Positions 18,826-19,698 of a DNA stretch of 64,000 bases are shown here, in pieces. Under the pieces are notes generated by a model. That model saw only the letters and a program-made list of their open reading frames with translations. It was not told the origin of the DNA and made no database searches. The number at the start of each line of letters is the position of its first letter. Within the stretch, counting starts at the first letter, position 1. The stretch is from Escherichia coli (GTDB taxonomy: Bacteria; Pseudomonadota; Gammaproteobacteria; Enterobacterales; Enterobacteriaceae): NCBI RefSeq assembly GCF_003334315.1, contig NZ_QOWR01000013.1. One strand, written 5' to 3'. The translations under genes and the position numbers were made by a program.

Positions 18826-19698
18826 ATGCGCTATTTCATACTAATGTTCACTTTCGTATGTTCCTTTGTTGCAGCCCAACCAACTATTGTCCCACAATTA
18901 CAGTAACAAGTTACGGATCTTACGAGTAGCTTAAACTCACAAGAAAAGAAAGAACTGACGCACAAGTTAGAATCTATTTTCAATAATACCCAAGTGCAAA
19001 TTGCCGTATTAATTGTTCCCACAACCAAAGACGAGACAATTGAACAATATGCTACAAGAGTTTTTGACAATTGGCGTTTAGGAGATGCCAAACGTAATGA
19101 TGGGATACTGATCGTTGTTGCCTGGTCGGATCGCACTGTCCGCATCCAGGTAGGTTATGGGCTGGAAGAAAAGGTAACCGATGCTCTGGCTGGAGATATC
19201 ATCCGTAGCAACATGATACCCGCATTTAAACAACAAAAATTAGCTAAGGGATTAGAGCTAGCTATAAACGCTTTGAATAACCAACTCACTTCACAACACC
19301 AATATCCGACTAATCCTTCAGAAAGTGAATCAGCGTCTTCCAGTGATCATTATTACTTTGCTATTTTTTGGGTATTTGCAGTGATGTTCTTCCCTTTCTG
19401 GTTTTTTCATCAAGGCAGTAATTTTTGTCGCGCATGTAAAAGTGGAGTCTGTATTTCAGCAATCTATCTTTTAGATTTATTCCTGTTCTCCGATAAAATT
19501 TTTTCCATTGCTGTATTTTCCTTCTTTTTTACTTTCACCATATTTATGGTCTTTACCTGTTTATGTGTACTTCAGAAAAGAGCATCTGGTAGAAGTTATC
19601 ATTCAGACAACAGCGGTTCCGCTGGAGGCTCAGATAGCGGCGGATTTAGCGGCGGGGGCGGTTCTTCTGGAGGTGGCGGCGCATCCAGCCGCTGGTAA
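18826..19698 (+). pseudogene. ygcG: ygcG (TPM-domain membrane protein) interrupted by an in-frame TAA at codon 27
   Basis: ATG at 18826 opens [26 protein letters not shown] then TAA at 18904-18906; the same frame continues into track ORF 18994..19698 (GTG start). Total span equals the 290-codon full-length gene. C-terminus is a glycine/serine-rich tail. Confidence 0.6.

Follow-up and report, generated by a model that had tools for sequence, protein, structure and literature searches.

What does it mean for a gene to keep its full length and yet carry a stop codon close to its beginning? The question is raised by ygcG, which occupies positions 18826-19698 on the plus strand of the window (the whole 64,000-nucleotide stretch of E. 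coli DNA that was analysed). Translation, Pfam matches and RefSeq annotation together lead us to conclude that ygcG in this genome is very probably an inherited nonsense pseudogene of a dispensable E. coli gene for a TPM-domain membrane protein. The reading frame opens at the ATG at 18826-18828 and continues for 26 sense codons to a TAA at 18904-18906, which is codon 27; beyond this TAA it is open as far as the next in-frame stop, the TAA at 19696-19698, and all 290 codon positions are kept. The interruption and the preserved length had both been described in the first-pass annotation of this DNA, and the coordinates and the translation agree with that description. The same annotation took the leading 26 codons (18826-18903, plus strand) to be a signal peptide. 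This is in accord with the translation, in which residues 3-23 are hydrophobic and are followed by VAA/Q; the short open reading frame that remains is essentially a putative signal peptide and nothing else. A helix is predicted at residues 4-11 with low confidence. The ORF listing also bears out the claim of a 234-codon frame downstream (18994-19698, plus strand), without the signal sequence, whose GTG at 18994 (codon 57) is the first in-frame ATG, GTG or TTG to follow the stop.

The stop codon is a genuine feature of this gene and is widely shared. We found the whole 873-nt ygcG sequence to be 100% identical in ten independent complete E. coli genomes, whose hosts were ducks, chickens and humans in several countries. 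Of 3940 complete genomes with this version of the region, 343 contain an exact match to a 61-mer that has the TAA at its centre; nearly all of the remainder differ from it by a single base. About 6% of complete E. coli genomes belong to lineages with the TAA allele. The internal stop is already known, as the gene is annotated as a pseudogene in public genomes. RefSeq labels sequence identical to that of the window 'ygcG, TPM domain-containing protein, pseudo, internal stop', and its PGAP annotation treats ygcG as a pseudogene with an internal stop in all 13 of the carriers that we inspected, in two of them as 'frameshifted; internal stop'. Among the carriers are RCAD0514, W5-6, RM13322, VL46, O104:H4 C227-11, O103:H2 12009, KSC207, TL-14 and ANT; the RefSeq pseudogenes EGA47_RS06595 (RCAD0514), AAF13_RS02315 (O104:H4 C227-11) and ECO103_RS17495 (O103:H2 12009) all have TAA at codon 27, as does the window. 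The first-pass annotation had allowed for a sequencing error, and an error of base calling or assembly in the window genome would have in its favour the single-base difference from K-12 and nothing else. Because the identical TAA allele recurs in independent assemblies, 343 complete genomes that span many laboratories, hosts and sequencing platforms, this explanation has next to no chance of being correct.

The codon found at this position in other strains points to the direction of the change. Codon 27 is CAA (glutamine) in K-12, where gene nucleotide 79 is C rather than the T of the window, and exact 161-mers with CAA were found in 1331 and 815 genomes, at least 2146 in all. An alignment with other E. 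coli strains, proposed at the outset as a check, thus gave a clear answer: the codon is normally a sense codon. Gln27 is kept in every ygcG allele that we aligned, including the class with a divergent N-terminus (MRIILFLLTLWCL...) and the copy that stands at the ygcG position in O157:H7. Since CAA is present in K-12 and in so many other genomes, and Gln27 is kept across the aligned alleles, the TAA at 18904-18906 (plus strand) is best read, from K-12 comparison, genome counts and allele alignment, as a derived nonsense codon created by a C>T change at 18904. Between K-12 and the common K-12-like TAA allele, represented by strain W5-6, the codon-27 base is the sole difference over 3.86 kb. The K-12 protein itself (b2778, WP_001268460.1) comes from the same locus, with the order queE, yqcG, ygcG, eno and pyrG in common with the window, and is intact at 290 amino acids. 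Over the 873 nt of the gene there are two differences between K-12 and the window: the TAA in place of CAA, and Gly287Ser. The latter is a sub-lineage polymorphism at 19687 (plus strand; gene nucleotide 862, G>A) in the glycine-rich tail; of the other genomes, only the ten identical ones have it. The suggestion that the mutation was both recent and inactivating therefore holds in its second part and only partly in its first: the allele lies one substitution away from that of K-12, yet it has become fixed in whole lineages.

The protein that was lost can be described once Gln27 is restored. Residues 29-152 of the restored YgcG match the Pfam family TPM_phosphatase (PF04536) with E=2.5e-37, covering positions 1-124 of the 125 in the model. 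Among NCBIfam models, a match to Psb32 fell below threshold and no hit to a YgcG-specific model was found. The AlphaFold model of YgcG has moderate overall confidence and is best predicted at residues 31-50 (pLDDT 85-87); it places strand 1 at 29-31, helix 1 at 38-55 and strand 2 at 58-64, with the other elements of the TPM fold extending to residue 155, and its helices at 173-193, 200-221 and 224-253 coincide with the hydrophobic segments at 176-251. The restored protein thus has a putative signal peptide, a TPM domain, predicted membrane helices and a glycine-rich tail. It resembles BA41 of Bizionia argentinensis (PDB 5anp), to which residues 20-186 align with E=8.8e-24; both proteins have a TPM domain, a membrane segment and a glycine-rich tail, and the tail lies within the alignment. 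The alignments to the solved relatives BA41 (5anp), 7tbr and 2kw7 begin at YgcG residues 18-27. These three and BA42 are intact proteins of distant bacteria, whereas ygcG in the window is interrupted: with TAA at codon 27 and a pseudogene annotation, it has no uninterrupted frame and does not belong with the functional TPM/YgcG genes. Our searches of the literature on ygcG, yqcG, TPM and LemA did not find a functional study of E. coli YgcG or a biochemical function for it.

Could the ribosome nevertheless produce a useful protein from this gene? Ribosomes that halt at the TAA might reinitiate at the GTG at 18994 and make a functional, truncated YgcG without a signal peptide. E. coli is known to restart translation downstream of early nonsense codons, as in the lacI restart mutants, and this precedent, together with an open 234-codon frame that some gene callers predict, is what speaks for such a product. 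The GTG, however, is separated from the stop by 87 nt and lacks a Shine-Dalgarno sequence: the 17 nt before it pair with the anti-Shine-Dalgarno sequence at +1.8 kcal/mol, less favourably than the local background (mean -1.4), whereas yqcG and the native ygcG ATG reach -7.9 and -2.7 kcal/mol. No Shine-Dalgarno sequence was found for the near-cognate CTG at 18955 and ATT at 18976 upstream of the GTG, and a search before every in-frame canonical or near-cognate start after the stop found no ribosome-binding site before codon 96. A protein begun at codon 57 would also have no signal peptide, and its TPM fold would be missing strand 1 and helix 1 (positions 1-28 of the 125 in the Pfam model), so that the TPM domain would be expected to misfold and to lie on the wrong side of the membrane. 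Finally, in two O121 genomes that are independent of each other, GTVSS-020 and RM8352, the TAA is accompanied by an identical A5>A6 frameshift at gene nucleotides ~405-410 (window ~19230-19235), and because of this frameshift we take the downstream frame to be free of constraint in the O121 lineage. The 11 sequenced carriers outside O121 have no second disruptive mutation in that frame, which is expected of a young pseudogene and is also compatible with constraint. We regard reinitiation at 18994, which the first-pass annotation had offered as one reading, as very improbable, and on the evidence here the 234-codon frame would not be an independent gene.

A programmed use of the stop codon, either by readthrough or as the boundary of a conserved two-part gene, would account for its recurrence with conserved flanks in many genomes, and it had been proposed that the same stop in orthologues would reveal a programmed split. 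That rule does not apply here: the carriers are near-identical alleles of one species that fall into two haplotype groups, related by descent or by conversion, and all of the diverged alleles encode glutamine; a stop retained by diverged orthologues, with both parts under purifying selection, is not what we find. Among the stop codons of E. coli, UAA terminates most efficiently, and inspection of the sequence revealed no recoding or readthrough signal around this one. Together with the secondary decay in O121, these considerations make programmed recoding scarcely conceivable. The features of the nonsense pseudogene, in contrast, are in place: the codon is sense in orthologous alleles, the mutation is reproduced in independent assemblies, no rescue signal accompanies the downstream start, and further decay has occurred in one carrier lineage.

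The exact 234-amino-acid remnant (18994-19695) is present in public protein databases under the names 'hypothetical protein' and 'repair family protein' (BEC73804.1 is an example). This serves as a warning that some annotation pipelines call the truncated ygcG ORF as a gene.

Most probably one C>T transition, converting the CAA of Gln27 into TAA, produced the nonsense pseudogene, so that translation from the native ATG ends after 26 residues. The resulting peptide, essentially the signal peptide, would probably enter the membrane and be broken down; no meaningful amounts would be made of the TPM domain, the three predicted transmembrane helices or the glycine-rich tail. Rho-dependent polarity on the untranslated rest of ygcG is plausible. 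That the residual 234-codon frame is intact would reflect the youth of the mutation relative to the rate of neutral decay and not its expression. The gene is dispensable and has been lost from E. coli repeatedly, by the nonsense allele, by insertion of IS1 and by replacement of the locus.

Several other observations describe the condition of ygcG in the species. IS1 lies within the gene in strain HS (IS1A), PEC414, 0H25 and VG888-46E9, and ygcG is among the hotspots of mobile-element insertion that were replicated between E. coli collections (bioRxiv 10.1101/527788). In a DNA-level search of complete genomes with ygcG, under 80% of the gene was matched in 926 and nothing of it in 567. In O157:H7 (17B6-2), lemA and three TPM genes take the place that yqcG and the broken ygcG alone fill in the window (~18600-19698). 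This lemA-TPM cluster lies between genes of the queE side and eno, which it adjoins as ygcG does, and its last TPM protein shares with YgcG an N-terminal class and a glycine-rich C-terminus; the K-12-type locus looks like a reduced form of such a cluster. From the IS1 insertions, the reported hotspot, the absent or partial matches and the O157:H7 replacement, we infer that ygcG lies in a plastic and dispensable locus.

The gene also varies in its composition. YgcG occurs in two sharply different N-terminal allele classes (window 18826-19030), one of them MRIILFLLTLWCL..., and each is joined to a nearly identical remainder, an arrangement that marks ygcG as a recombinational mosaic. In some genomes the DNA match to ygcG starts only at gene nucleotide ~178-204, and at the DNA level only the last ~75 nt match between O157:H7 and ygcG. 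In NC101 (phylogroup B2), yqcG is frameshifted and sucrose-utilisation genes replace ygcE and the CRISPR array; ygcG is intact.

The TAA is found on two local haplotypes. One is K-12-like and is represented by the window, RCAD0514, W5-6, TL-14 and ANT, the gene of RCAD0514 being 100% identical to that of the window. The other, a B1-type haplotype with different flanks, is represented by RM13322, VL46, O104:H4, O103:H2, KSC207 and O121; within ygcG its members show 16 differences from the window (in O121, 15 and the frameshift), and upstream of it 12-14. The nearest sites that separate the two haplotypes (both given on the plus strand) are 18769, 135 nt upstream of the mutation, with A in the window and K-12 type and C in the B1 type, and 19005 (gene nucleotide 180), 101 nt downstream, with C in the window and K-12 type and T in the B1 type. 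We counted perfect matches to 161-mers (four over 19005, two over 18769), setting the E-value limit between the values for a perfect match and for one mismatch. Across the downstream marker, the counts were 85 genomes for the K-type with TAA, 254 for the B1-type with TAA, 815 for the B1-type with CAA and 1331 for the K-type with CAA; across the upstream marker, they were 85 for the K-type with TAA and 256 for the B1-type with TAA. All four combinations of allele and marker exist, and a single origin without recombination was rejected. These counts imply that either the C>T change occurred twice or a conversion tract of less than 236 bp carried the TAA from one haplotype to the other. Recurrence and micro-conversion are inseparable here because the haplotypes are identical between 18769 and 19005.

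Two further differences were seen along the compared loci. Of 12 loci, that of the window alone has a T at 21150 (3' end of pyrG), and ygcE is intact in the window (14828-16306, 492 amino acids) but is annotated as frameshifted in RCAD0514.

The presence of the TAA on two haplotypes hints that loss of YgcG may be selected rather than neutral. Loss of this envelope protein would then be advantageous in some niches, and the identical C>T change would have arisen independently in phylogroup-A-type and B1-type lineages, in parallel with the IS1 knockouts. The background-specific markers on both sides of the mutation, with near-equal counts at each (for the K-type 85 on either side, for the B1-type 256 upstream and 254 downstream), the abundance of intact versions of both haplotypes (1331 and 815 genomes), the IS1 insertions in several strains and the published insertion hotspot are all consistent with this possibility. 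Selection for any loss of function, however, would not favour one site in particular. Since ygcG has 117 single-base changes that create a stop, 27 of them transitions, an exact repeat by chance has a likelihood of about 1-in-27 to 1-in-117. The pattern is accounted for just as well by a conversion tract of under 236 bp, which would leave no trace, and hotspots of insertion sequences can reflect target preference. Positive selection for the loss of YgcG is thus a tentative proposal that we think rather unlikely. Slightly less probable again is the fuller version, in which a phylogroup-A-type lineage and several B1 lineages acquired Gln27>stop separately, by mutation or by fixation after micro-conversion, and in which this, taken with the IS1 hits, marks adaptive gene loss; if true, it would provide a first handle on the physiological cost of an uncharacterised, sigma-S-linked envelope TPM protein. 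The inherited pseudogene is in itself of little import beyond showing that about 6% of complete E. coli genomes, the outbreak lineages O104:H4, O103:H2 and O121 included, can dispense with an uncharacterised envelope gene. Mild interest attaches to the finding of one and the same nonsense change in two haplotypes of a gene that IS1 has also struck repeatedly; this could indicate selection for YgcG loss.

Gene order around ygcG corrects one further statement of the first-pass annotation, that the gene lies directly beside a CRISPR leader. The array, with ten repeats of type I-E and annotated as CRISPR in RCAD0514, occupies 16945-17522 on the minus strand. An AT-rich flank starts at 17523, and the degenerate terminal repeat at 16945 suggests that this is the leader side. 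Between it and ygcG stand queE (ygcF; 17862-18533, minus strand) and yqcG (18672-18812, plus strand), about 1.3 kb in all; ygcG is therefore neither adjacent to the leader nor CRISPR-associated. A CRISPR link was rejected on gene order, and NC101 has ygcG without the array. The yqcG gene is intact and encodes a small envelope-stress protein of 46 amino acids (WP_001288228.1 on identical DNA); it has a strong Shine-Dalgarno sequence (-7.9 kcal/mol) and ends 13 nt before the ygcG ATG, and the two genes are probably co-transcribed. A sigma-S ChIP-seq peak has been reported at the queE/yqcG region in a paper that lists 'ygcG' but describes the small protein yqcG (PMC4447067), and deletion of yqcG results in higher queE expression (PMC4974570). 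This context of yqcG, sigma-S and queE leaves the reading of the stop codon unchanged.

Elsewhere in the window, the Rfam matches above the gathering threshold are all expected for this region of E. coli: sok antitoxin RNA (234-391, minus strand), CsrB (37272-37631, minus), GcvB (55812-56017, plus), the ES036 sRNA (59033-59075, minus) and a tRNA (60503-60576, plus). When the 24 kb from 10000 to 34000 were used as a query, no genome aligned in one unbroken piece at above 99.6% identity, the matches at 99.9% being fragmented. A median of 17 matching places was found per genome, which points to short dispersed repeats.
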